Assembly: GCF_000018105.1 (NCBI RefSeq)
Contig: NC_009925.1
Span: 420,001-452,000 of the forward strand
From: Acaryochloris marina MBIC11017
Lineage (GTDB): Bacteria; Cyanobacteriota; Cyanobacteriia; Thermosynechococcales; Thermosynechococcaceae
Direction of reading: 5' to 3'
DNA: 32,000 nt
Shown: positions 2,232-21,675 of the stretch, one piece after another
Layout of the letters: every line of letters starts with the position of its first letter
Numbering within the stretch: the first letter of the stretch is position 1
Position numbers and translations under genes: made by a program
The notes under the pieces: model-generated
Databases searched by the model: none
What the model saw: the letters and a program-made list of their open reading frames with translations, nothing else
What the model was told of the DNA's origin: nothing

Positions 2232-4652
2232 ATGGTTCACACTCCTGTTGCCCCCACATCCAGACCCCTCAGCGAATTAGAGCTGCACAATATTGATGCC
2301 TACTGGCGAGCCTGCAACTATCTGGCCGTGGGCATGATCTACCTACGCGATAACCCCTTGTTGAAAGAACCGCTCCAATCTGCCCATGTCAAGCATCGCT
2401 TACTGGGACACTGGGGTGCCTCTCCAGCCCTGAGCTTTACCTATATTCACTGCAATCGACTGATTAAAAAATATGCTCTGGATATGATCTTTATGGCGGG
2501 TCCAGGCCACGGTGCACCGGGTGTCCTGGGGCCTGTCTACTTGGAAGGGACCTATTCAGAAATTTATCCCGATAAAAGCGAAGATTCAGAAGGGATGCGG
2601 CGGTTCTTTAAGCAATTTTCTTTCCCTGGCTTTATCGGCAGTCATGTCACCCCTGAAACCCCTGGTTCCATCCATGAGGGGGGAGAGCTGGGCTATAGTG
2701 TTTCCCATGCCTATGGTGCTGTCTTAGATAATCCCGATCTCATTGTGACTTGTGTAGTGGGGGATGGTGAAGCGGAGACCGGCCCCCTAGCAACGTCTTG
2801 GCATTCTAATAAATTTATCAATCCTGCTCGGGATGGGGCAGTGTTGCCTGTACTCAACCTCAATGGCTACAAGATTGCCAACCCCACCCTTTTGGCCCGC
2901 ATCTCCCATGAAGAGTTGGAATATTTATTCCGAGGCTACGGCTACACTCCTTATTTTGTCGAAGGCAAGAATCCAGCGGAAATGCATCAAAAGATGGCCG
3001 CCGTGATGGAGGAATGCATTCTCACGATTAAAAAGGTGCAGAGAGAGGCCCGTATCAACGGCACCCTGGAGCGCCCCCGCTGGCCGATGATTGTCCTACG
3101 CACCCCCAAGGGCTGGACCGGTCCCAAAGAAGTCGATGGTAAAAAAGTCGAAGATTTTTGGCGATCGCACCAGGTTCCCATGGGTGGTATGCAGGATAAC
3201 CCCGATCACCTGCAACAGCTGGAAGCTTGGATGCGCAGCTACAAGCCGGAGGAGCTGTTTGACGAACACGGAACCTTAATTCCTGAATTGAAAGCCCTAA
3301 CCCCGGTCGGTAATCGGCGCATGGGATCGAATCCCCATGCCAATGGGGGTTTATTGCGGAAGGCCCTAAAACTTCCCAGCTTCCAGGATCTAGCGATTGA
3401 TATTGGGGAGCAACATGGCACCGTCACCTTTGAAAACACCAAGGCTTTAGGGATATTTATGCGGGAAATTATCCGTAAGAATCCCAACAACTTTAGGTTG
3501 ATGGGTCCCGATGAAACGGCCTCCAATCGTCTCCAAGATGTGTATCAAGTCACGAAGAAAGTCTGGATGGCAGACCTATATCCAGAAGATGAAGATGGGA
3601 CCGAACTGTCTCGGGACGGTCGGGTGATGGAAATGCTCAGTGAGCATACGCTACAGGGCTGGCTAGAAACCTATTTATTAACGGGACGCCATGGTCTATT
3701 CCATACCTATGAAGCCTTTGCTCATGTCGTGGACTCGATGTTTAATCAACATGCGAAGTGGCTGGATATCTGCCGCAATCATGTCCCTTGGCGACGGTCG
3801 GTATCGTCGTTAAATATTTTGCTCTCCTCCCTGGTTTGGCGTCAGGACCATAATGGCTTTAGTCACCAGGATCCAGGCTATGTGGACTTGGTAACCAACA
3901 AAAGTCCAGATGTGGTGCGGCTTTACTTTCCACCGGATGCTAACTGTTTGCTGTCGGTCGCCGATCACTGTTTTCGGAGTGTGGACTATATCAATGTGAT
4001 CATTTCGGATAAACAAAAACATCTACAGTATCTGTCCATCGATGAGGCGGTTGCTCACTGCACTAAGGGCATCGGCATTTGGGACTGGGCCAGCAATGAT
4101 GACTGTGGCACTGAACCCGATGAACCCGATGTGGTGATGGCTTCCTGTGGCGATATTCCCACCATGGAGGCGTTAGCGGCAACGGCCATTCTGCGGGAAG
4201 AATTTCCTTGGCTGAAGGTCCGCTTTGTCAATGTAGTGGACCTATTTAAGTTAGTGTCTGAAGGCGAACATCCCCACGGGTTATCTGATCGGGACTTCGA
4301 TTCTCTGTTTACGCCCGATAAACCAATCATTTTTAACTTTCATGGCTATCCCTGGCTGATCCATAAGTTGGTCTATCGCCGTTCTCACCAAGAGCGCATT
4401 CATGTGCGGGGCTACAAGGAGCAGGGCAATATCAATACGCCCCTGGAGTTAGCGATTAAAAATGAGGTGGATCGCTTTAACCTGGTGATTGATGTGATTG
4501 ATCGGGTGCCAAAGCTGGGGTCGGCAGCGGGCCATGCCAAGGAACGGATGCGCAACAAGATCATCGAATGTCTCGCCTATGCCCATGAGCATGGTAAGGA
4601 TCAAGATGAGATTGTCAACTGGACCTGGCCCTATGTTGGAGTCTGTGAATAA
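2232..4652 (+). CDS. xfp: Xylulose-5-P/fructose-6-P phosphoketolase
   Basis: Carries the phosphoketolase signatures EGGELGY and GDGEAETGP and the HWG(A/T)SP-type N-terminal region. The product is about 806 aa. ATG 2232 is preceded by GGAGG at 2216-2220. The track start at 2175 is an unsupported longer extension. Confidence 0.95.
3161..3168. repeat. HIP1 octamer GCGATCGC
   Basis: Exact match read in the sequence. Confidence 0.95.
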
Positions 4653-6492
4653 TATCGATGCTCCGCGCATTGAGAGTGCCATTCGGGCGCTGGAGCAGCT
4701 CAAAGCGCGCGCCTTGGCCCTTGAGCAGGATTTCGAAATTGCTCTCCAGCGCACCGCTCCCTCTCATCGCAATAGTGCTCGTAATCTCCTCCACTATCTG
4801 GCACTGCGCCGCCATGATATCCGCGAGCTGCAGCTTGAACTCAGCCACCTGGGCCTGAGTTCCCTGGGGTTAACCGAACTGCACGTGATGGCCTCTCTCA
4901 ATGCCGTCCTGATTGCCTTGCATCGACTAGTAGAACGAGCGGTGCCTCCTCAACTTCAAGCCCCGACCCCTGTGACCTTTGCCAATGGTCAGGCTCTCCT
5001 GGTGGAACATACCCTCACAGCCCTAGGGCCTAAACCAGAACAGCGAGCCACTCGGATCATGGTGACGATGCCCACTACAGCAGCAGAGGATCCAGCTCTG
5101 ATTCGTCGGTTTTTGGCTGCTGGGATGGATATTATGCGGATTAACTGCGCCCATGATGGTCCTGATGCTTGGCTGCAAATGATTCAGCATCTGCGACAAG
5201 CGGAAGCGGAATTGGGACTATCCTGCAAAGTCTCTTTTGATTTGGCCGGTCCCAAACTGAGAACCGAGGCTTTGGCCCCTGATGTTGAAGTGATCAAATG
5301 GCAGCCCCACCGAGATCGTCTGGGGCACATCGTGCAACCGGCACGGCTCTGGTTGACCTCAACGTCCTCCCAGACTGCTGACTTAGATTGCACTACCATC
5401 CCGATTCAGTCTCCCATCTCAGTCCAAATGGGAGATATGATCCAGCTTACGGATGCCCGTCACCGTCGCCGCCGCTTATCAGTGGTGGAGGTGAGGGATA
5501 ATGGCTGTCTCTGTGAATGCGATCGCACCGGCTATATCACTTCAGGACTGCCCTTTGAGATTCAGCGTCATCAGGCCGTAGTAGGAACGGGCAAGATCGG
5601 TCAGCTTCCTGCCCTTGAAAACAACCTCACCCTCCAACCTGGAGATGTCCTGCGCATTCTTCGGGGTGATATTCTAGGCCAGCCCGCCATCTTAGATGCC
5701 ACCGGACAGGTTCTGCAGCCTGCCCACGTGGGCTGCACCTTGCCCCAAGTGTTCCAGGATGTGAAGCCAGGAGAGCGGATCTTTTTTGACGATGGCAAGA
5801 TTGAGGGGCTGATTCAAAAGGTTAGTGAGACTGAACTGAGGGTGGAAATTGTTTCTGCAGTCAAAGGAATCGCCAAGCTCAAGGGAGAAAAGGGTATCAA
5901 CCTGCCTGACACCCAACTTAACCTGCCAGCCCTCACCCCCAAGGATATTAGCGATCTCAGCTTTGTGGCCCAACAGGGAGACTTAGTGGCCCTCTCCTTT
6001 GTCCAATCCCCAGAGGATGTAGAACATCTGGTGCAAAAGCTCGATCAATTGGGGGCAACAGACTTAGGCATTATTCTCAAAATTGAAACCCGACTCGGGT
6101 TTGAGAATTTACCCAAACTATTGCTGGCTGCAATGCAGCATCGATCTGTAGCTGTGATGATTGCGCGGGGCGATTTGGGGGTTGAGGTGGGCTTTGAGCG
6201 GATGTCGGAGGTGCAGGAGCAAATTTTGCTGTTGTGCCAAGCGGCCCATGTTCCCGTTATCTGGGCAACTCAGGTCCTAGAGTCCCTGGCGAAGGGAGGC
6301 CTACCGTCACGGGCGGAGGTTACAGATGCAGCGATGGGCAGTCGAGCCGAATGCGTCATGCTCAACAAAGGCCCCTATATTGAGCGGGCGATGGAATTTC
6401 TCAACAATATTCTTCAGCGGATGCAGGAAAATGTGGCTAAGAATATGGCCACCCTTCGCAAACTCCGGGTTTCCGAGATTGAAGCGGAGTAG
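4633..6492 (+). CDS. Pyruvate-kinase-like protein with atypical architecture (N-terminal helical extension, enlarged B-domain region, no C-terminal regulatory domain)
   Basis: PK barrel motifs are present: [61 protein letters not shown]. The canonical MLSGETA is replaced by MLNKGPY. ATG 4633 (or GTG 4645) overlaps the last 20 nt of xfp. The track start at 4498 lies inside xfp in another frame. Confidence 0.75.
5519..5526. repeat. HIP1 octamer GCGATCGC
   Basis: Exact match read in the sequence. Confidence 0.95.
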
Positions 6493-8651: not shown

Positions 8652-9743
8652 TTAGCTCGTCATTATCGGAATCGTAGGAATTTCCTTAGACTCGGTTGAA
8701 GCTAGCGTTAAGGAGAAGTGATGGGCATTAACTGAATGCATCACCTGTAGTCCCATCGTGGCCCGATTCAAGAGATCGGCTTCGGTGCGGATGGGTCGTC
8801 CACTGCTATCGAGCAGAGAGTGATTGAAATTAAACCCATTCAAATTGAATGCCATCGTGCCGATGCCTAAAGCGGCAAACCAGATACCGATCGTGGGCAG
8901 TACCGCCAATAGAAAATGAATGGAACGGCTATTACGAAAGGCAATATCAGGGATAAACAAGCGTCCTAGATATCCAGCATGTCCCGCGAGTAAATTATAG
9001 GTGGCTTCCTGTTGGCCAAATTTATACCCCGTATTAACAGATTTCAGGCTAGAGGTTTCCTGAACCAAGCTGGAGGTGACTAAAGAGCCATGCATGGCAC
9101 TGAGGAAGGCTCCACCAAAGACACCGACTACCCCCAACATATGAAACGGATGCATCAAGATATTATGTTCCGCTTGAACCGCCATCATAAAGTGGAAGGT
9201 GCCGGAAATTCCTAGGGGTAACCCTTCGGAGAAGCTTCCTTGTCCCATTGGGTACACCAATAGCACTGCCGTGGCAGCAGCAACTGGGGCAGAAAAAGCC
9301 ATAGCAATCCAGGGACGCATACCCAGACGATAGCTCAACTCCCACTGTCGCCCCAGATAGGTCCAAATAGCGATCAAAAAATGCAAGATGATCAGTTGAT
9401 AAGGCCCTCCGTTGTAGAGCCACTCATCCATCGATGTAGCTTCCCATAAGGGGTATAAGTGTAAACCTATTGCGGCTGAAGTAGGTATCACCGCAGCAGT
9501 AATCACATTACTTCCACCTAGAAGAGAACTGATAATAGGTTCACGAATACCTTCCATATCAACAGAAGGGGCCGCCACCCAGGCGAGCATGAAGGTTATG
9601 GCTGAAACGAATAGGGATGGAATCATCAGTAGGCCAAACCAACCAACATAGAGCCGATTGTGGGTACTGGTAATCCACTCACAAAATTGGTCCCAGGCGG
9701 AAACAGTGGGTAATCTCGATGGAGTTTGAAACGTAGTAGACAT
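8652..9743 (-). CDS. psbA: Photosystem II D1 paralog lacking Mn4CaO5 ligands (rogue/sentinel-type D1)
   Basis: Aligns over its full length with canonical D1 recalled from memory. Retained: Tyr161, Glu189, His190, His198, His215, His272, His332, His337, Ala344. Substituted: Asp170->Glu (GQGSFSEG), Glu333->Ser and Asp342->Thr ([15 protein letters not shown]). AGGAG lies 9 nt upstream of the ATG. Confidence 0.88.
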
Positions 9744-9777: not shown

Positions 9778-10209
9778 TTAAGTATTGGGTTTGGGCCCTA
9801 AATGTCCTGGAGTCGTAACTGTAAAGCCAGATGGATAACCCGAAATCGTGTTGAAACCGCACTGACGCCAATGCTGCATGCCACCCGATAAATTGAATAC
9901 CTGAGTGAACCCAGCCTTGAGCAATTGGGCTGCTGCCAGGGGACTACGATGGGATGTTAGACACACCACTACTATGGGCTGGTCCTTAGATAAGGCTTGA
10001 AACCAATCAGGAAGGACCCACCGGTTGATGATGGGGAGTTGGCCGATGAGCAGGCGTAATAAACTGAGATTGATGGCATTAGGGATATGTTCTGCTCGGT
10101 ATTCTCCGACACTGCGAACATCCAGTAGCAGTGGGGGTGGAATGAGTTTGGTGTAGGCCAACGGCGAAACCTGAGTCACCGAAGCGCGGTGTGAATGATA
10201 GTTATACAT
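9778..10209 (-). CDS. Single-domain rhodanese (thiosulfate/persulfide sulfurtransferase)
   Basis: Rhodanese fold motifs are present: [21 protein letters not shown], the active-site loop [10 protein letters not shown] (Cys-X4-Arg) and NLSGGMQHW. It starts 51 nt downstream of the Rieske fusion gene and ends 34 nt upstream of psbA. Confidence 0.85.
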
Positions 10210-10260: not shown

Positions 10261-11292
10261 CTAGGCCACGGTGCCGAGGGGTTGGGCGTCAACGTAGTCT
10301 TGGATAAAGTGCAGCAGTTGGGGGTGTGCGGCTAGGGGCAGGTCCAGTTTGTGAACTTGGGCCAATAGCTGGTCTGTGGTCCATTGCTGATGAACGGCTT
10401 CGTAGAGCAATGCCATCGCACCAGAGCGTAACCCTCCTTTGCAATGCAAGAGAATGGGTTTGGATAGCTGATCTATGATCGTCAACACTTGTTCAGCCGT
10501 GGCCTCTGAGAGGTCTGCTGGATTAATGGGTAGATTGGCATAGTTCATGCCTGCGCTGTGCACAAGTTGGGACTCATTGATGAGAAAGCCGTCTTCCTGA
10601 GGCGATCTCAAATTCAATACAGACTTAAACCCCAGTTGGGCCGCATCTTGAATCTGGTCAGGGGTTGGCTGGAGCATAGCGACGGAGAGCTGCTCATTGA
10701 TTTGAAGGGTATATTGCATGAGATTTTCCGGTGTAGGGTGGTCATCAAAGGTATCCGCCTTGACCCACCAGGGGCGGTCCCCGGTGCGTGGGTCAAGCTC
10801 GGTCCAAGGCAGAATCCAGATTTGTTCACCTTCAACTTGGACATGCACCAACTTGAGGGGTCGATCGGCAGGACCGCGCACCACGGAACCATCGGCTGCA
10901 AAGCGAGATCCGTGGCAAGGACATTGAAATTGATCGGCAGCACCATTCCAGGGAAATGTGCAGCCTAAATGGGTGCAGTTATCGACGATGCCCCGATCCT
11001 CAATTTGACCTGTGATCGTCAGGGTTAAATAGGTCGGTTCACTATCTAGTCCTGCCACGAGGGCACGAGTGCCAGGCGGTTCTGCCAAGAGTTGACTAGT
11101 GGGGATGGGGTTGCCCAGGGCATCCTTTGCTAGAACCCGCCCCGCCCCTCTGCTGGAGTTTGGGGGTACAAAAACACGACTGATGGGATAGAGGGTTGCA
11201 CCTGCCGTGATGGCTACCGCCGACCCGGTCAAGAAATTGAGAAACCGTCGCCGGGAGAGAGAGGGCTGAGAAATAGATAAACTCTCGTTCAT
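10261..11292 (-). CDS. Fusion protein: Tat-signal PetC-type (cytochrome b6f) Rieske iron-sulfur protein + C-terminal DUF442 (PTP-like sulfurtransferase) domain
   Basis: N-terminal half: [24 protein letters not shown] (twin-arginine signal plus TM helix), AKDALGNPI, Rieske boxes CTHLGC and [12 protein letters not shown], and [14 protein letters not shown], which is a b6f PetC-type C-terminus. C-terminal ~150 aa: [32 protein letters not shown] (DUF442-like HCxxGxRS loop). GGAGA lies upstream of the ATG. Confidence 0.85.
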
Positions 11293-11322: not shown

Positions 11323-11535
11323 TTATTGGGAAAGTTGACGAGCATTAGTGTGAATCCCCAACAATCGATAAATCGGACAGAACCCCAGTAAGGCGGTAAA
11401 GGTTGGAATTGCGGCTGCGATCGCTAACCCCATACCGAGGGTTGAGCCGCTATAGGTGCCTAATCCTAAATAAAGTAGTAATCCACCCAAACCTATTCGA
11501 AACAGGCGATCCATTAAGCCCAGATTTTTGGTCAT
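11323..11535 (-). CDS. DUF2892 / YgaP-like small membrane protein
   Basis: 70 aa. The pattern GLMDRLFRIGLGGLLL...LLGFCPIYRLLGI is typical of the YgaP-like transmembrane domain. A strong AGGAGG lies upstream. This is the first gene of the minus-strand operon. Confidence 0.7.
   Translation of the reverse strand: MTKNLGLMDRLFRIGLGGLLLYLGLGTYSGSTLGMGLAIAAAIPTFTALLGFCPIYRLLGIHTNARQLSQ
11417..11424. repeat. HIP1 octamer GCGATCGC
   Basis: Exact match read in the sequence. Confidence 0.95.
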
Positions 11536-11870: not shown

Positions 11871-12066
11871 GAAGATCAGCTTAAAATCGAATGATTAGTA
11901 TCAAAGCTCAGGTCTTGTTTTATCTCTAGTGCTGCTTGCAGTGACCTATCTAGTACAACCCGCTTGCTCCAAGCCTATGGAGATTTAGAAGAAGGCTAGC
12001 CCCCTTCAACCTGCGCAACTTAATTAATTGAAATCCTTTTCAGACCGACCTTTGAGAGGTTTATAT

Positions 12067-13377
12067 ATGGCTCATATTGTTGTCATTGGAGCAGGATTGG
12101 CAGGATTGCCGACTGCCTATGAGTTGAGGTACCTGTTACCTAGTCAGCATCAAATTACCCTGATCTCCAATACCTCTAAATTCACATTTATTCCATCCCT
12201 TCCTTGGGTCGCGCTAGGGCTGATCCCCTTGGCTAAGATTCAGTTAGAACTGGAGGAGTTGGTGATTCAACAGGGAATAAGATGGCTCCCTGAAGCGGTG
12301 GTTCACCTGAATCCTCGGACTCAAACTGTTTATACAGATTCTCAGTCTTTGGCCTATGACTACGTCGTCATTGCCACCGGAGCCGAGTTAGCCTTGGATA
12401 CGGTATCCGGCCTGGGACCAGAGCAGGGCTTTACCCAGTCGATTTGCAATCCTCACCATGCTTTAATGGCCAACAGTGCTTGGCAAAATTTTTTACAGAA
12501 TCCGGGTCCTTTAGTGGTGGGGGCAGTGCCCGGGGCAAGCTGTTTTGGCCCTGCCTATGAGTTTGCCTTATTAGCCGATTACACTCTTCGCCAGCAAGGG
12601 TTGCGGGATCAAGTTTCCCTTACATTTGTGACACCGGAACCCTATGCGGGGCATTTGGGGATTGGCGGCATGGCAAATTCTAGCCAGCTCGTGACGGAGT
12701 TGATGGCGGCCAGAGACGTGGCAGTTTTGGAGAATACCGCCATCGACTCCGTCACATCTCAGGAGATTATTTTGGCCAATGGCGACGCGGTGCCCTTCCA
12801 GTACGCTATGTTGCTGCCGCAGTTTCGAGGGCCTGGCTTTGTTCGTGAGACAGCGGGGTTAGGGGATACCAAGGGGTTTCTGCCCATATTGCCCACCTAT
12901 CAGCATCCTGTTTTTCCCTCAGTGTTTAGTGCAGGTGTTGTCACTCAATTAGCACCACCAGAGGTAACTCCGATAGCAATCGGGGTGCCAAAAACTGGAC
13001 AAATGGTTGAAGCAATGGGGATGGCAGTGGCTCACAATATTGCCCTGGCCTTAGGGGCCATCTCAGATCAGCCTGTTACCCCCACCTTAGAAGCCATCTG
13101 CTTTGCAGACTTTGGAGATACAGGATTACTCTTTTTGGCGGACCCCGTTCTGCCTGATCCAGTGACGGGACGGCGACGCCGCGCCATTACCCTAGGGGGG
13201 CGTTGGGTGGGTTGGTTGAAAACAGCATTTGAACGCTATTTTCTAGCCAAAATGCGCTGGGGAGCTGCCGTCCCTTGGTTTGAGCGCTTGGGGCTTCGGG
13301 CCGCGGGTTTTTCTTTGTTAGAGGCCGCTCCTTCGACGGAACCTGACTCGGTACGCGAGGACGTCCTGATTCATTGA
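12067..13377 (+). CDS. sqr: Sulfide:quinone oxidoreductase, type I
   Basis: MAHIVVIGAGLAG FAD fold. Colinear with Rhodobacter and Oscillatoria SQR as recalled, including the three conserved Cys contexts TQSIC, GASCFGPAYEF and AICFADFGD, plus GVPKTGQM and ERYFL. ATG 12067 follows GAGAGG. The track start at 12028 is a TTG extension. Confidence 0.93.
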   Translation: MAHIVVIGAGLAGLPTAYELRYLLPSQHQITLISNTSKFTFIPSLPWVALGLIPLAKIQLELEELVIQQGIRWLPEAVVHLNPRTQTVYTDSQSLAYDYVVIATGAELALDTVSGLGPEQGFTQSICNPHHALMANSAWQNFLQNPGPLVVGAVPGASCFGPAYEFALLADYTLRQQGLRDQVSLTFVTPEPYAGHLGIGGMANSSQLVTELMAARDVAVLENTAIDSVTSQEIILANGDAVPFQYAMLLPQFRGPGFVRETAGLGDTKGFLPILPTYQHPVFPSVFSAGVVTQLAPPEVTPIAIGVPKTGQMVEAMGMAVAHNIALALGAISDQPVTPTLEAICFADFGDTGLLFLADPVLPDPVTGRRRRAITLGGRWVGWLKTAFERYFLAKMRWGAAVPWFERLGLRAAGFSLLEAAPSTEPDSVREDVLIH

Positions 13378-13555
13378 GAGCTGACGCGTTCTTTCAATAG
13401 GCATACATGTTGATTCCCCTGCAATGGATCAACTTACTCTGCGAGCTAGCGCTTTATGCTTTTCAGTTGACCAAGGGATTTCTAGCACTATCTCAGAATC
13501 TAAGAAAGGTAGATTTTTTTACCAATACTGCTGATATGGAGGGTATGGAGTCATT

Positions 13556-14902
13556 GTGATCGATGTTTTGACTCAAAGAATAGGGGCGAGGCCGAGACTT
13601 CCACGCTGGAGTGCTTTAGCATTGCTCTTGGCGGTATCAAGTGGAGCAGCCTGGTGGGTTTTTAATCTACGTCTATCCCGAGAGACACCGACGGTTGCTG
13701 CGCATTCGCCGATGGTCGTGAAGACTGCGATCGCAACTCGGCAACCCATAGCCATAGATCGGATCCTTACAGGCACCGTTGAATCATCTGAAGCGGTCAC
13801 TCTGACCAGTCGAGTCATGGGCCAAATTCGGCAGCTGACGGTGCGCGAAGGAGATATCGTTCAAGCGGGACAACGGATCGCTGAAATCGATGTCCGCGAT
13901 ATTCAAGCCCAACAGCAGCAAGCAACTGCGGCGATTCCTCAAGCGCAATCAGCAGTCAGTATTGCCCACTCAGCGAAACTGACCGCCCAAGCGCAAAAAA
14001 GTCAGGCCCAAGCTCGTGTCCAAGAGGCTCAAGCTCAACTGACCGAAGCGCAAGCCGAACTCGCAGATGCCCAACTCCATCAACAAAGGATGGTGATGCT
14101 AAGGCGAGAAGGAGCGGTGAGCCAATCTCGTTTGGATGAGGCGAATACGCGCTTGTCGGTGATTCAGGCTCGTATCAGTCAAGCGAAAGCCGGACTGACT
14201 CAATCCCGCACGACGGTGAGGCAAGCCCAGGCTGCCGTGGTTCAGGCCCAAGCTCAAATCCGTCAAGCTCAAGCCCAAGTTGAACAAGCTCAGGCTCAAG
14301 TGAAACAAACTCAAGCCAACCTTGACTATGGGACTGTGATTGCCCCCTTCACAGGCGTGATCAGGCATAAATACACCGAAGTGGGGGCAATGGCAGGTCC
14401 CGGCGAATCAATTGTGAAGTTAGAACGCAGCGGTCATCTGAGACTGAGTGTTGATGCTCCTGAATCTCTGGTAGGCCAAATTCAACGAGGCAAATCCGTC
14501 TTAGTTCAAATCGACGCGCTTAATCGCCAGATCGCAGGCCGCATTAATCAAATCATCCCTGCTGCTGATCCCAGATCTCGAAACTTCACCGTTAAGATCG
14601 CCTTGAAGCCAAACCAAGACTTGCTACCAGGCATGTTTGGTCGATTACAGTTCAGCTCCATTACTCGTCAAAATGCTGCTGCTCGCCAGGGTCTCATGAT
14701 TCCTGAAGATGCGATAGTCAAGCAATTTGGCATCACAGGGGTCTTCAAAGTCGTAGGCCAGCAGGCTCAGTTTAATCCTATTACCACGGGACAGATTGAG
14801 GGCAAAACAGTGGAGGTCTATTCAGGACTAGAGAGGGGAGATCGCATCATTGTCAATCCCAGCCCCAAACTTGAGAACGGAACGGCTCTTCAAGTGAGTT
14901 AG
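13556..14902 (+). CDS. RND/HlyD-family periplasmic adaptor (membrane fusion protein)
   Basis: N-terminal TM anchor, a lipoyl-like segment (VREGDIVQAGQRIAEID), a long Q/A-rich coiled-coil hairpin, then APFTGVI and beta-barrel segments. GTG start after GGAG. Confidence 0.85.
   Translation: MIDVLTQRIGARPRLPRWSALALLLAVSSGAAWWVFNLRLSRETPTVAAHSPMVVKTAIATRQPIAIDRILTGTVESSEAVTLTSRVMGQIRQLTVREGDIVQAGQRIAEIDVRDIQAQQQQATAAIPQAQSAVSIAHSAKLTAQAQKSQAQARVQEAQAQLTEAQAELADAQLHQQRMVMLRREGAVSQSRLDEANTRLSVIQARISQAKAGLTQSRTTVRQAQAAVVQAQAQIRQAQAQVEQAQAQVKQTQANLDYGTVIAPFTGVIRHKYTEVGAMAGPGESIVKLERSGHLRLSVDAPESLVGQIQRGKSVLVQIDALNRQIAGRINQIIPAADPRSRNFTVKIALKPNQDLLPGMFGRLQFSSITRQNAAARQGLMIPEDAIVKQFGITGVFKVVGQQAQFNPITTGQIEGKTVEVYSGLERGDRIIVNPSPKLENGTALQVS
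13727..13734. repeat. HIP1 octamer GCGATCGC
   Basis: Exact match read in the sequence. Confidence 0.95.
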
Positions 14903-20188: not shown

Positions 20189-21067
20189 GTAAAGCTCTCA
20201 AGGTACTAATCTGTCAATACACAAACACTGGACAGGACCTAGAGAGCAATGCCTACAGCATATGATAGCGACCTCACCACCCTGCAATGGGAATTACTTG
20301 AGCCTTTGATTCCTGCTGCTAAACCTGGAGGTAGACCTCGCACCACTGATATGCTCAGTGTTCTCAATGCCATTTTTTATCTCGTGGTTACAGGTTGTCA
20401 GTGGAGACAACTACCTCATGATTTTCCCTGTTGGTCAACGGTCTATAGCTATTTTCGAAGGTGGCGCGATGATGGGACTTGGAGTCAAATCAATGAACAT
20501 CTACGCATGCAAGTGCGGGTGAGTGAAGACCGTCATCCCAGTCCCAGTGCCGCTATCTGCGATGCTCAATCGGTCAAAGTCGGCAATCCTCGGTGTCACT
20601 TGATTGGGTTTGATGGTGGGAAAATGGTCAAAGGTCGTAAACGTCATGTGCTCGTTGATACTTTAGGGCTGGTTTTGATGGTGATGGTCACTGCTGCCAA
20701 TATCTCTGACCAACGAGGGGCCAAAATACTGTTTTGGAAAGCTCGACGCCAAGGTGCGAGTTTGTCCCGTCTAGTTCGGATATGGGCCGATGCTGGCTAT
20801 CAAGGACAAGCTTTGATGAAGTGGGTAATGGACCGTTCTCAATATGTCTTGGAAGTGATCAAACGCTCAGATAATCTAGCGGGGTTTCAGGTTGTTTCCA
20901 AACGATGGATTGTAGAACGGACGTTTGGATGGTTGTTGTGGTCTCGACGTCTTAATAAAGATTATGAGGTGCTGACTAGGACGGCTGAAGCGCTTGTTTA
21001 TGTGGCGATGATTCGACTCATGGTTCGAAGGCTAGCGCAGGAGCACTAAAACTTCTCAAACAGCCTC
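20170..21067 (+). mobile_element. Intact IS5-family (IS1031-group-like) insertion sequence, 898 bp
   Basis: Perfect 17-bp terminal inverted repeats GAGGCTGTTTGAGAAGT (20170-20186, and the reverse complement of 21051-21067). A 3-bp direct duplication TCA flanks it (20167-20169 and 21068-20170 side: 21068-21070). It carries a single transposase ORF. Size, GAG ends and the 3-bp DR fit my recollection of the IS1031 subgroup. Confidence 0.85.
20249..21049 (+). CDS. IS5-family DDE transposase
   Basis: 266 aa. N-terminal DLT..QWELLEPLIP...GGRPR..D.....NAIFY...TGCQWR.LP..FP.W.TVY.YF.RW..DG.W. DDE region VDTLG..., IWADAGYQG, VERTFGWL..RRL.KDYE. Confidence 0.9.
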   Translation: MPTAYDSDLTTLQWELLEPLIPAAKPGGRPRTTDMLSVLNAIFYLVVTGCQWRQLPHDFPCWSTVYSYFRRWRDDGTWSQINEHLRMQVRVSEDRHPSPSAAICDAQSVKVGNPRCHLIGFDGGKMVKGRKRHVLVDTLGLVLMVMVTAANISDQRGAKILFWKARRQGASLSRLVRIWADAGYQGQALMKWVMDRSQYVLEVIKRSDNLAGFQVVSKRWIVERTFGWLLWSRRLNKDYEVLTRTAEALVYVAMIRLMVRRLAQEH

Positions 21068-21312: not shown

Positions 21313-21675
21313 ATGTCCGACATTGTTGATAAACAAGTTTCTCCAGAAGTACTCGTAGCTGTGGCTGACTATTTTAAGGTTCTTTCAGAGGTCAGCCGCT
21401 TGCAGATCCTCAGCAACCTTAGATCAGGCCCCATGACGGTTAATGATCTGGTGGATGCGACAGGTCTTGGACAGGCCAATCTTTCCAAACATTTAAAGGT
21501 GTTGACTCAGGCGGGTCTTCTCTCCCGCACCCCCAGTGGCGTCAGTGCTTACTATGAGATTGTCGATCCACTGGTGTTTGAACTGTGTGAATCAGTGTGT
21601 GATTCCATTAGCGATCGCTTATTGCAGCAGGCACAGAAATTTAATCAATTCAAATCCTTCAGCAAATCGTCATAG
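21313..21675 (+). CDS. ArsR/SmtB-family winged-helix transcriptional regulator
   Basis: Motifs FKVLSEVSRLQILSNL....MTVNDLVDATGLGQANLSKHLKVLTQAGLL.R..G....Y. The only cysteines are Cys92 and Cys96 (ELCESVCD) in the predicted alpha5 helix. Confidence 0.9.
   Translation: MSDIVDKQVSPEVLVAVADYFKVLSEVSRLQILSNLRSGPMTVNDLVDATGLGQANLSKHLKVLTQAGLLSRTPSGVSAYYEIVDPLVFELCESVCDSISDRLLQQAQKFNQFKSFSKSS
21611..21618. repeat. HIP1 octamer GCGATCGC
   Basis: Exact match read in the sequence. Confidence 0.95.

Follow-up and report, generated by a model that had tools for sequence, protein, structure and literature searches.

Acaryochloris marina carries a PetC-type Rieske protein with a C-terminal DUF442 domain in a microoxia-induced gene cluster

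It has long been asked how cyanobacteria change over between oxygenic photosynthesis and a sulfide-tolerant or sulfide-driven mode, a matter that bears on the Proterozoic history of oxygen, and the parts known so far for this switch are sulfide:quinone reductase (SQR), SQR regulators and variant D1 proteins. Here we describe AM1_0450, a gene of Acaryochloris marina MBIC11017 that encodes a cytochrome b6f-type Rieske protein (PetC) extended at its C terminus by a DUF442 domain; it lies in a stretch of 32,000 nucleotides (hereafter the window) that, from the published coordinates of the gene, corresponds to positions 420,001-452,000 of the chromosome. The protein combines two known kinds, PetC2-type Rieske paralogs and fusions of DUF442 to sulfide-oxidation enzymes, and the locus adds to the parts above a b6f-type Rieske protein with a putative sulfurtransferase domain of its own, whose expression rises together with that of SQR and a "rogue" D1 in an organism that is in culture.

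On the Rieske side, the paralog called petC2 in the literature is the one adjacent either to sqr (PMC11304991) or to psbA1 (PMC5295598). Synechocystis PetC2 (slr1185) resembles AM1_0450 in being a PetC paralog encoded away from petA, induced by low oxygen and clustered with psbA1 and a rhodanese gene (slr1181...slr1184, slr1185; PMC5295598); its low-oxygen induction, rightly given in the original prediction, was reported by Summerfield 2008, as cited in PMC5295598 and PMC11304991. In metagenome-assembled genomes (MAGs) of Thermostichales, petC2 is reported beside a type I sqr (PMC11304991), a linkage that AM1_0450 shares. Synechocystis PetC2 can replace PetC1 (PMC7823997, PMC11304991) and, as reported, is of ordinary length with no C-terminal domain, whereas AM1_0450 has 166 extra residues including DUF442; the psbA partner in A. 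marina, a rogue (Group 2-like) D1 without Mn ligands, is a further difference. Canonical PetC1 (2zt9_D, 2e74_D, 7zxy_D) matches AM1_0450 in length and order of elements up to residue 177, at 44-46% identity, but has VV after cluster-binding box I and Q-Y after box II where AM1_0450 has TF and R-F. Unlike PetC1, AM1_0450 has no petCA context and is lengthened by an entire domain, whereas PetC1 fails to assemble when GFP is added artificially at its C terminus: in Synechocystis, PetC1-GFP is a free, fast-diffusing thylakoid protein that does not co-migrate with b6f, and PetC2 takes over (Kana et al., PMC7823997).

On the DUF442 side, sulfurtransferase activity has been demonstrated for the domains of Blh (PMC5823870) and of Cupriavidus SQR (PMC9163753), in both of which the loop Cys moves sulfane sulfur among thiosulfate, polysulfide, glutathione (GSH) and sulfite. 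Blh (Xylella, Agrobacterium BigR operon), with thiosulfate:cyanide and thiosulfate:GSH sulfurtransferase activity (PMC5823870), shares with AM1_0450 a fused DUF442 with the same Cys loop; its partner is an ETHE1-type persulfide dioxygenase of sulfide oxidation, encoded in a sulfide/hypoxia-responsive cluster. Blh is a cytoplasmic protein that works with glutathione and O2 and has DUF442 N-terminal to the dioxygenase, whereas in AM1_0450 the domain is C-terminal to a Rieske protein exported by the twin-arginine translocation (Tat) system, is predicted to lie on the opposite side of the membrane, and has no dioxygenase in its cluster. In the SQR of Cupriavidus pinatubonensis, as in AM1_0450, DUF442 is flexibly linked to a membrane-bound component of the sulfide-to-quinone pathway, where the tethered domain restrains sulfane-sulfur accumulation and modulates its partner (PMC9163753). 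There, however, DUF442 is N-terminal on SQR itself and on the cytoplasmic side, whereas in A. marina SQR is encoded by a separate, divergent gene and the partner of DUF442 is the quinol-oxidizing Rieske protein.

Domain composition of AM1_0450

The open reading frame (ORF) is intact in the ORF listing, with an ATG start, and is located on the minus strand, a detail that the original prediction left unstated (Table 1). Its product is identical to ABW25506.1, WP_012161113.1 and UniRef100_B0CB16 from the finished 6,503,724-bp chromosome, and all the motifs on which the original prediction drew, HCKGGLRS included, were found in the translation. The expected combination of Rieske and DUF442 was recovered by Pfam, with PF25471 (TM_PetC) at residues 8-52 (58.9 bits vs a cut-off of 37.1), PF00355 (Rieske domain), and PF04273 (DUF442, now BLH_phosphatase) at residues 198-293 (35.8 bits vs 26.1).

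Table 1 Features of the fusion gene and of its cluster partners, in window coordinates
Feature	Position	Strand	Evidence
Whole fusion gene AM1_0450	10261..11292	-	343 aa + stop; exact ABW25506.1 match; published 430261..431292
Twin-arginine signal and transmembrane anchor, aa 8-52, SRRRFLN, modeled helix aa 12-41	11137..11271	-	PF25471, RR motif, AF2
Rieske head, aa 53-177, ends at canonical PetC C terminus PWW(V)	10762..11136	-	2zt9_D, 2e74_D, 7zxy_D alignment; pLDDT >90
Cluster-binding box I CTHLGC (C106-C111), then clade-specific TF	10960..10977	-	invariant in fused-family alignment
Cluster-binding box II CPCHGS (C124-S129), then R-F (Tyr to Phe)	10906..10923	-	alignment
Linker, aa 178-190, probably former intergenic spacer	10723..10761	-	pLDDT ~62; length and sequence variable; L011 TGG>TAG split
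DUF442 / PF04273 PTP-fold sulfurtransferase-like domain, aa 191-343	10264..10722	-	Pfam, Foldseek, pLDDT 90-98
Active-site loop H283-C284-K-G-G287-L-R289-S290 (CX4R)	10423..10446	-	H, C, G, R, S invariant in 18 sequences
DUF2892 / YgaP-like protein AM1_0451 with two transmembrane segments, upstream partner	11323..11535	-	PF11127 66 bits; conserved synteny; invariant Cys
Single-domain rhodanese AM1_0449, CLTSHR loop intact, no signal peptide, downstream partner	9778..10209	-	PF00581 70 bits
Rogue (Group 2-like) D1, psbA1, AM1_0448, downstream partner	8652..9743	-	7yq2_A alignment; TIGR01151 577 bits vs 596 required
Type I sulfide:quinone reductase AM1_0452, divergent	12028..13377	+	3hyv_A (Aquifex) E = 5.8e-96; A. 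ferrooxidans SQR ~1e-89

The N-terminal half is a b6f-type PetC, as originally proposed: residues 1-176 match positions 1-179 of the 179-position PetC equivalog profile NF045928 (NCBIfam) with 258.5 bits vs a cut-off of 250, a narrow margin, and residues 5-176 align with residues 6-178 of Nostoc 2zt9_D (E = 3e-48). The PetC chains of solved b6f complexes (2zt9_D, M. laminosus 2e74_D, Synechocystis 7zxy_D, spinach 6rqf) cover residues 5-177 and stop there at PWW(V), in agreement with the earlier statement that canonical PetC ends at its b6f tail; because they end at this point, the residues past 177 are a genuine extension. The transmembrane anchor, the position of the hinge, the cluster boxes, the disulfide cysteines and the b6f-specific C-terminal extension are all retained, and C106, H108, C111, C124, C126 and H127 (the four cluster ligands and the disulfide cysteines) are invariant across the 18 fused sequences, that is, AM1_0450 and the 17 relatives introduced below.

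In a neighbor-joining tree of the Rieske half, the fused proteins and a set of unfused ones (P0018-P0031) form one grouping, separate from canonical PetC as represented by Nostoc, Mastigocladus, plastid and marine sequences. The unfused members, from Pseudanabaenales, Planktothricoides, Zarconia and others, are 55-67% identical to the Rieske half of the fusion and mostly 177-220 aa long. The signature of this paralog clade is box I followed by TF, vs canonical CTHLGCVVPW(N/Y), and most of the fused members have CPCHGSRF at box II vs canonical CPCHGS(Q/R)Y. Judging by mutants of the bc1 complex, a Tyr to Phe change beside the cluster is expected to lower the Rieske midpoint potential by tens of mV, to about 50 mV below that of PetC1. 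The tree separates the clade from canonical PetC only, and it is on its low-oxygen induction and its linkage to psbA1, rhodanese and sqr genes that AM1_0450 is best read as a PetC2-type low-oxygen paralog.

An AlphaFold2 (AF2) model built from an alignment of 84 sequences (mean pLDDT 89.9) has a confident Rieske head, a confident alpha/beta domain at residues 191-336, a transmembrane helix at 12-41, a low-confidence hinge at 41-50 and a linker at about 181-190 with pLDDT of about 62; a first run on 18 sequences gave a poor Rieske half (pLDDT <50) and a C-terminal domain at about 80-95. With pTM of 0.59 and the low pLDDT of the linker, contact between the two domains is without structural support. 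A Foldseek search of the PDB, which used the first, 18-sequence model, placed the C-terminal domain closest to two crystal structures of DUF442 proteins, 3gxh_A (target-normalized TM-score 0.81, rmsd 2.5 A) and 2f46_A (NMA1982; 0.77), with phosphatases, including the weaker matches TpbA, PFA-DSP and Cdc14, below them at 0.6-0.75. In alignments with 3gxg and 2f46, Cys284 and Arg289 pair with the Cys and Arg of the loop, and Cys284 is the only Cys of the C-terminal domain in this protein, each of the 18 fused proteins having just one. The Cys loop singled out in the original prediction is intact, and PF04273 is precomputed on all 17 relatives. The fused domain keeps the whole catalytic loop of its active relatives and, by analogy with them, is predicted to be a sulfurtransferase.

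Recurrence and origin of the fusion

The same three-domain architecture was found in 17 clusters (53-92% identity, 342-378 aa) in a search of 5.8 billion protein clusters, and the 90%-identity cluster of AM1_0450 itself contains 343-aa members from A. marina NIES-2412 and Acaryochloris sp. CCMEE 5410. Across the alignment of the 17 clusters, the linker differs in length and sequence, and the reading frame is open throughout. These observations, together with the identity to the finished chromosome, rule out a frameshift or assembly artefact at the gene junction, in line with the original view of a single continuous frame. Comparison with a 95%-identical copy from a MAG (L011) gives dN/dS values of 0.18 (Rieske half) and 0.09 (DUF442 core), on small counts (12 synonymous and 4 non-synonymous in the core), and both halves are shown to be under purifying selection.

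A scan with the DUF442 half across one genome per GTDB species yielded 78 loci, seven of which (L011-L014, L016, L018 and L025) have an in-frame upstream Rieske domain. All seven are from Acaryochloris or Thermosynechococcaceae MAGs, to which lineage the fusion is confined, and the remaining loci encode standalone domains or other fusions. No independent Rieske-DUF442 architecture was present among the best 150 matches of a phmmer search against 1.84 billion representatives, in which proteins matching over several stretches were tandem DUF442, dioxygenase-DUF442 and multi-Rieske proteins; this library cannot count the fused family, which sits in it under an unfused 178-aa representative. Other partners of DUF442 were seen in passing, namely a GST/glutaredoxin-like domain in Nostoc sp. 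106C (L039:7344-8423) and a TauE/SafE-like domain with multiple transmembrane segments in a Verrucomicrobiota MAG (L042:26-1045).

Three MAGs (bins.137 and.176, and Thermosynechococcaceae bin10) contain two fused loci each. The second, divergent fused paralog (L012, L013 and L014; KAI9129473.1, P0013 cluster) shares about 63% identity over its Rieske half and about 50% over DUF442, and comes with its own cluster of sqr and a membrane-fusion protein (MFP) gene in L012 and L014, L013 beginning at the petC gene. In CCMEE 5410 this second paralog is borne on a plasmid.

The closest relatives of the fused domain, standalone cytoplasmic DUF442 proteins that are 40-50% identical to it, are encoded in about 25 other cyanobacterial genomes (Capilliphycus, Leptothermofonsia, Coleofasciculus, Microcoleus, Chamaesiphon, Gloeocapsopsis and Halothece among them); they are 146-154 aa long, have no signal peptide and start at the domain itself (MENVKKIN...). 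Most of them have a second conserved Cys (GFDC) that is lost from every fused copy. In the two standalone loci examined (L019:7568-9906 and L036:7562-9940), ArsR stands beside an operon of DUF442 and a metallo-beta-lactamase with two rhodanese domains, the unfused counterpart of the BigR-Blh sulfide-detoxification system, and it is from such a gene for a cytoplasmic DUF442 sulfurtransferase that the fused domain was apparently donated. In the alignment, the standalone proteins have their start Met opposite Met191 of the fusion. In L011 (positions 3306-4337; MAG Acaryochloris sp. IP29b_bin.137), the copy used above, which is 95% identical at the nucleotide level, TGG>TAG replaces Trp176, the canonical end of PetC, and PGAP calls a 175-aa PetC and a 152-aa "protein tyrosine phosphatase family protein"; this stop may reflect a reversal of the fusion in nature, a minor allele or an erroneous base. 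Another locus, L010, has a split version of 238 aa and 101 aa. The simplest history, which we infer because Met191 matches the standalone start and the L011 TAG re-creates two genes, would be that petC lost its stop codon and that translation then ran on through a short spacer into the duf442 gene behind it. Of the unfused PetC proteins, P0019 is the closest (67% identity); it belongs to an equivalent gene cluster, with SQR and ArsR on one side and DUF302, YgaP-like, PetC, BON, ArsA, psbA and rhodanese in this order on the other; its place in the same cluster means that DUF442 joined a PetC paralog that was already dedicated to the sqr/psbA neighborhood.

Cluster context, topology and proposed function

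The strongest argument for a sulfide-related role comes from the operon and the adjacent sqr, a context that the original prediction missed. The operon runs on the minus strand in the order DUF2892, PetC-DUF442, rhodanese and D1, with gaps of 30-51 nt, and on the other side sqr is followed by the gene of an RND-type MFP. The majority of the recovered fused loci keep a core made up of SQR, YgaP-like protein and PetC-DUF442, with rhodanese and psbA next where the contig is long enough, and synteny of the cluster was seen across L001-L005, L010-L014, L016, L018 and L025. YgaP-like (DUF2892) proteins of 66-72 aa are encoded directly upstream of every fused or unfused cluster PetC (window, L001-L025) and have an invariant Cys in the motif G-x-C-[P/A]-[L/I]-Y at the end of the second hydrophobic stretch. 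The D1 paralog carries D170E, E333S and D342T and keeps E189, H332 and A344; because two Mn4CaO5 ligands are missing, we assign it to the rogue or Group 2-like type (Group 2 as defined in PMC4408414), and, going by these substitutions, it should not bind a normal Mn4CaO5 cluster.

The published transcriptome of A. marina (Hernandez-Prieto et al., PMC5295598) identifies AM1_0450 as the only one of three petC genes that is induced by microoxia (log2 fold change 4.03 in Table 2). Microoxia raises the expression of the whole cluster 30- to 1000-fold. From control to microoxic conditions, AM1_0450 rises from 5 to 604 and the DUF2892 gene AM1_0451, the most strongly induced of the cluster, from 1 to 1691 (supplement file 8), with psbA1 (AM1_0448) going from 23 to 711, the rhodanese gene (AM1_0449) from 12 to 772, sqr from 4 to 173 and the MFP gene from 3 to 206 (PMC5295598). 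Induction extends over AM1_0445 to AM1_0456 together with AcsF and heme oxygenase, and the authors proposed co-transcription of the cluster and likened it to Synechocystis slr1181-slr1185 (PMC5295598). In the discussion of that paper, AM1_0449 is called the DUF2892 protein and AM1_0451 the rhodanese; its tables and the coordinates (AM1_0449 at 429778-430179, rhodanese; AM1_0451 at 431323-431535, DUF2892) show the reverse.

The original prediction held the architecture to be undescribed, and this holds in part. The gene, the flagging of the product as a fusion and its microoxic induction are already known; the paper did not say what the fused domain is, and it uses neither the word sulfide nor sqr (PMC5295598). 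In the literature searched, this was the sole relevant paper for the locus tag AM1_0450, and nothing was found that brings together DUF442, Rieske and cyanobacteria. Four things appear to be new: the added domain is recognized as a DUF442 sulfurtransferase, it is traced to a gene of cytoplasmic sulfide detoxification, it is predicted to have moved to the p-side, and the fusion is placed in a conserved module together with SQR, DUF2892, rhodanese and rogue D1.

Tat exports the Rieske head of PetC in the folded state, and the uncleaved signal stays on as the membrane anchor (see Aldridge et al. 2008). The RR motif is present in 17 of the 18 fused-family members, and each of the 18 has a single hydrophobic segment: beyond the N-terminal anchor, the Kyte-Doolittle mean over 19 residues stays at or below 1.6 throughout (C-terminal maxima 0.8-1.5). 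Because the head is Tat-exported and a second transmembrane segment is absent, the DUF442 domain is predicted to lie on the lumenal/periplasmic (p) side, as the original prediction had reasoned. The loss of the GFDC Cys from the fused copies is consistent with, though short of proof for, residence in a more oxidizing compartment.

We give about an even chance to the explanation that, taken as a whole, AM1_0450 is a p-side, membrane-tethered sulfane-sulfur transferase carried on an alternative, low-oxygen Rieske subunit of the PetC2 type; export of DUF442, assembly into b6f and enzyme activity are all predictions. Under microoxia or sulfide, SQR would feed electrons from sulfide to plastoquinone, the rogue D1 would shut down water oxidation, and the alternative Rieske protein would oxidize plastoquinol, its Rieske half most likely replacing PetC1 in b6f with a midpoint potential somewhat lowered by the Tyr to Phe change. 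Cys284, on a tether of about 13 residues, would take sulfane sulfur (persulfide or polysulfide) at the p-side membrane surface and hand it to an acceptor, candidates being sulfite or the invariant Cys of DUF2892 and, onward, the cytoplasmic rhodanese, so that the build-up of sulfane sulfur beside the quinol-oxidizing, high-potential end of the chain would be limited. If this is true, sulfane-sulfur chemistry is handled at the quinol-oxidizing face of the photosynthetic membrane and sulfide oxidation is in direct physical link with b6f; in the literature searched, we found no description of a lumenal or periplasmic sulfane-sulfur enzyme in cyanobacteria. A bolder version, in which the fusion is a genuine b6f subunit with a lumenal sulfur site, the SQR product is relayed via Cys284 and the DUF2892 Cys to the rhodanese, and the whole forms, with the rogue D1, a sulfide-driven non-oxygenic chain, seems to us improbable. 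More radical still would be a persulfide on Cys284 that gives electrons straight to the Rieske cluster, an entry of sulfide on the donor side of photosystem I that bypasses the quinone pool. The hypothesis is testable, given that the strain, the inducing condition (microoxia) and transcript data exist.

Several points weigh against the transferase explanation. Microoxic induction occurred without added sulfide, and a sulfide-specific role is inferred from the neighboring genes alone. The fused domain does not reach the cut-off of the sulfur transferase subfamily TIGR01244 (43.9 bits vs 85.85), nor that of the Blh equivalog NF040641 (50.2 bits vs 625); on these profile scores, it belongs to a divergent branch outside both models. 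In its ancestral setting, DUF442 acts in the cytoplasm alongside glutathione and a persulfide dioxygenase that requires O2, and no p-side thiol acceptor is known. A periplasmic location, which favors the explanation, is reported for the type I SQR of R. capsulatus (Schutz et al. 1999), but cyanobacterial type I SQR may be oriented differently. The nonsense variant in L011 makes the two halves separable in at least one population or assembly. Finally, by the PetC1-GFP precedent, a C-terminal add-on of 150 aa could prevent assembly into b6f, although a natural 17-kDa domain with an evolved linker might behave unlike GFP.

The last point bears directly on the possibility that the protein works outside b6f as a free, membrane-anchored p-side Rieske-sulfurtransferase, diffusing in the membrane with SQR, DUF2892 or nothing as its partner and with the cluster acting as a redox sensor or local electron sink in place of a Qo-site acceptor. 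PetC1-GFP, found solely as a free thylakoid protein, speaks for this, as do the absence of petA or other pet genes next to the fusion gene in the window, the NF045928 score barely above its cut-off and a hinge that, in the alignment, is poorer in glycine than that of canonical PetC. We nevertheless consider it, though a substantial rival, fairly unlikely: the structural elements of a b6f subunit listed above, from the anchor to the C-terminal extension, are retained, the unfused sisters, at 177-189 aa, are PetC proteins of the ordinary kind, PetC2 can functionally stand in for PetC1 in Synechocystis, and GFP is both bigger than DUF442 and not an evolved partner. Were the fusion indeed to stay outside b6f, it would still be a naturally occurring case of a Rieske protein that is membrane-anchored but free and has an enzyme domain attached. 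A regulatory module, in which Cys284 senses persulfidation or sulfide and alters the mobility or docking of the Rieske head, throttling or re-routing b6f in the presence of sulfide and sulfane sulfur without carrying sulfur, strikes us as distinctly unlikely. One conserved reactive Cys, flexibly tethered and directly joined to the mobile Rieske head, would suit such a device, the DUF442 fused to Cupriavidus SQR modulates its partner enzyme more than it adds an activity (PMC9163753), and polysulfide up-regulates psbA and petC in Synechococcus 7002, a case of cross-talk between sulfane sulfur and photosynthesis (PMC12466478); yet the complete catalytic loop and much of the DUF442 core are conserved as in active relatives, and the AF2 model lends the required domain contact no structural support.

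That the fusion is a tolerated accident, the relevant DUF442 being cytoplasmic (through a start at M191 or split alleles) and the exported copy having little or no function, we regard as decidedly improbable. Although M191 is at the position of the standalone start Met, and the stop in L011 falls exactly at the domain boundary to give two PGAP proteins, with L010 split as well, the frame is open in 17 clusters down to 53% identity despite their variable linkers, the dN/dS of the DUF442 half is low, and the loss of the second Cys in all fused copies suggests adaptation to a new setting; both split cases, moreover, were seen in MAGs, in which one wrong base or a minor allele may be the cause. 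A lumenal or periplasmic phosphatase acting on proteins or small molecules (of the protein tyrosine phosphatase, PTP, or DSP type) is scarcely credible as the identity of the C-terminal domain. The domain does have the PTP fold, with the weaker Foldseek matches named above, sub-threshold Pfam matches to PTP-NADK, Tc-R-P and PTP-SAK, and a tyrosine phosphatase name from PGAP for the split version; however, its CX4R loop is one residue short of the CX5R P-loop of PTPs, its best structural matches are DUF442 proteins rather than phosphatases, characterized DUF442 domains are sulfurtransferases, and both fused and standalone relatives occur in sulfur-metabolism neighborhoods.

Other features of the cluster and the window

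In an unfused cluster from Pseudanabaenales-like metagenome contigs (L006:7257-12665), DUF302, BON-domain and ArsA/Get3-like genes lie between SQR and psbA, and ArsA is also present in L005 and L010 and absent from the A. marina window. A reading of the locus in terms of arsenic redox, suggested by the ArsA and ArsR neighbors and the PTP fold, was rejected given that the window has no ArsA and PF04273 is not the low-molecular-weight PTP family of ArsC; ArsR-type regulators are, in addition, established sulfide sensors (PMC5823870). The ArsR gene that directly follows sqr in L003, L005 and L010 has left no remnant detectable by tblastn between sqr and the MFP gene here. In its place is AM1_0453, an ORF of 50 aa (13407-13559) with a published induction from 0 to 87. 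The sole ArsR-type gene of the window (21313-21675) is 37-41% identical to the sqr-linked regulators and adjoins an IS4/5 transposase gene (20249-21049), which suggests a rearrangement.

A motif shared by the ygaP-sqr and acsF-heme oxygenase intergenic regions was sought, and only one AT-rich 10-mer, probably a chance match, was found. A scan for promoters and terminators gave 4 promoter-like sites, against an expectation of 5.4, and nothing resembling a terminator between the genes of the operon.

Elsewhere in the window are genes for AdhE, phosphoketolase, pyruvate kinase, acetate kinase, a radical SAM protein resembling the activase of anaerobic ribonucleotide reductase, and NMO, as well as an AcsF-like cyclase, heme oxygenase and HemN, so that the window as a whole is a low-oxygen island. 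Some gene starts differ between the ORF listing and the annotation, with TTG at 12028 vs the annotated 12067 for sqr and ATG at 10209 vs the annotated 10179 for the rhodanese gene. The 664-aa ORF of the "pyruvate kinase" (4498-6492, with TTG at 4498) overlaps the end of the phosphoketolase gene, and its true start is probably further downstream.

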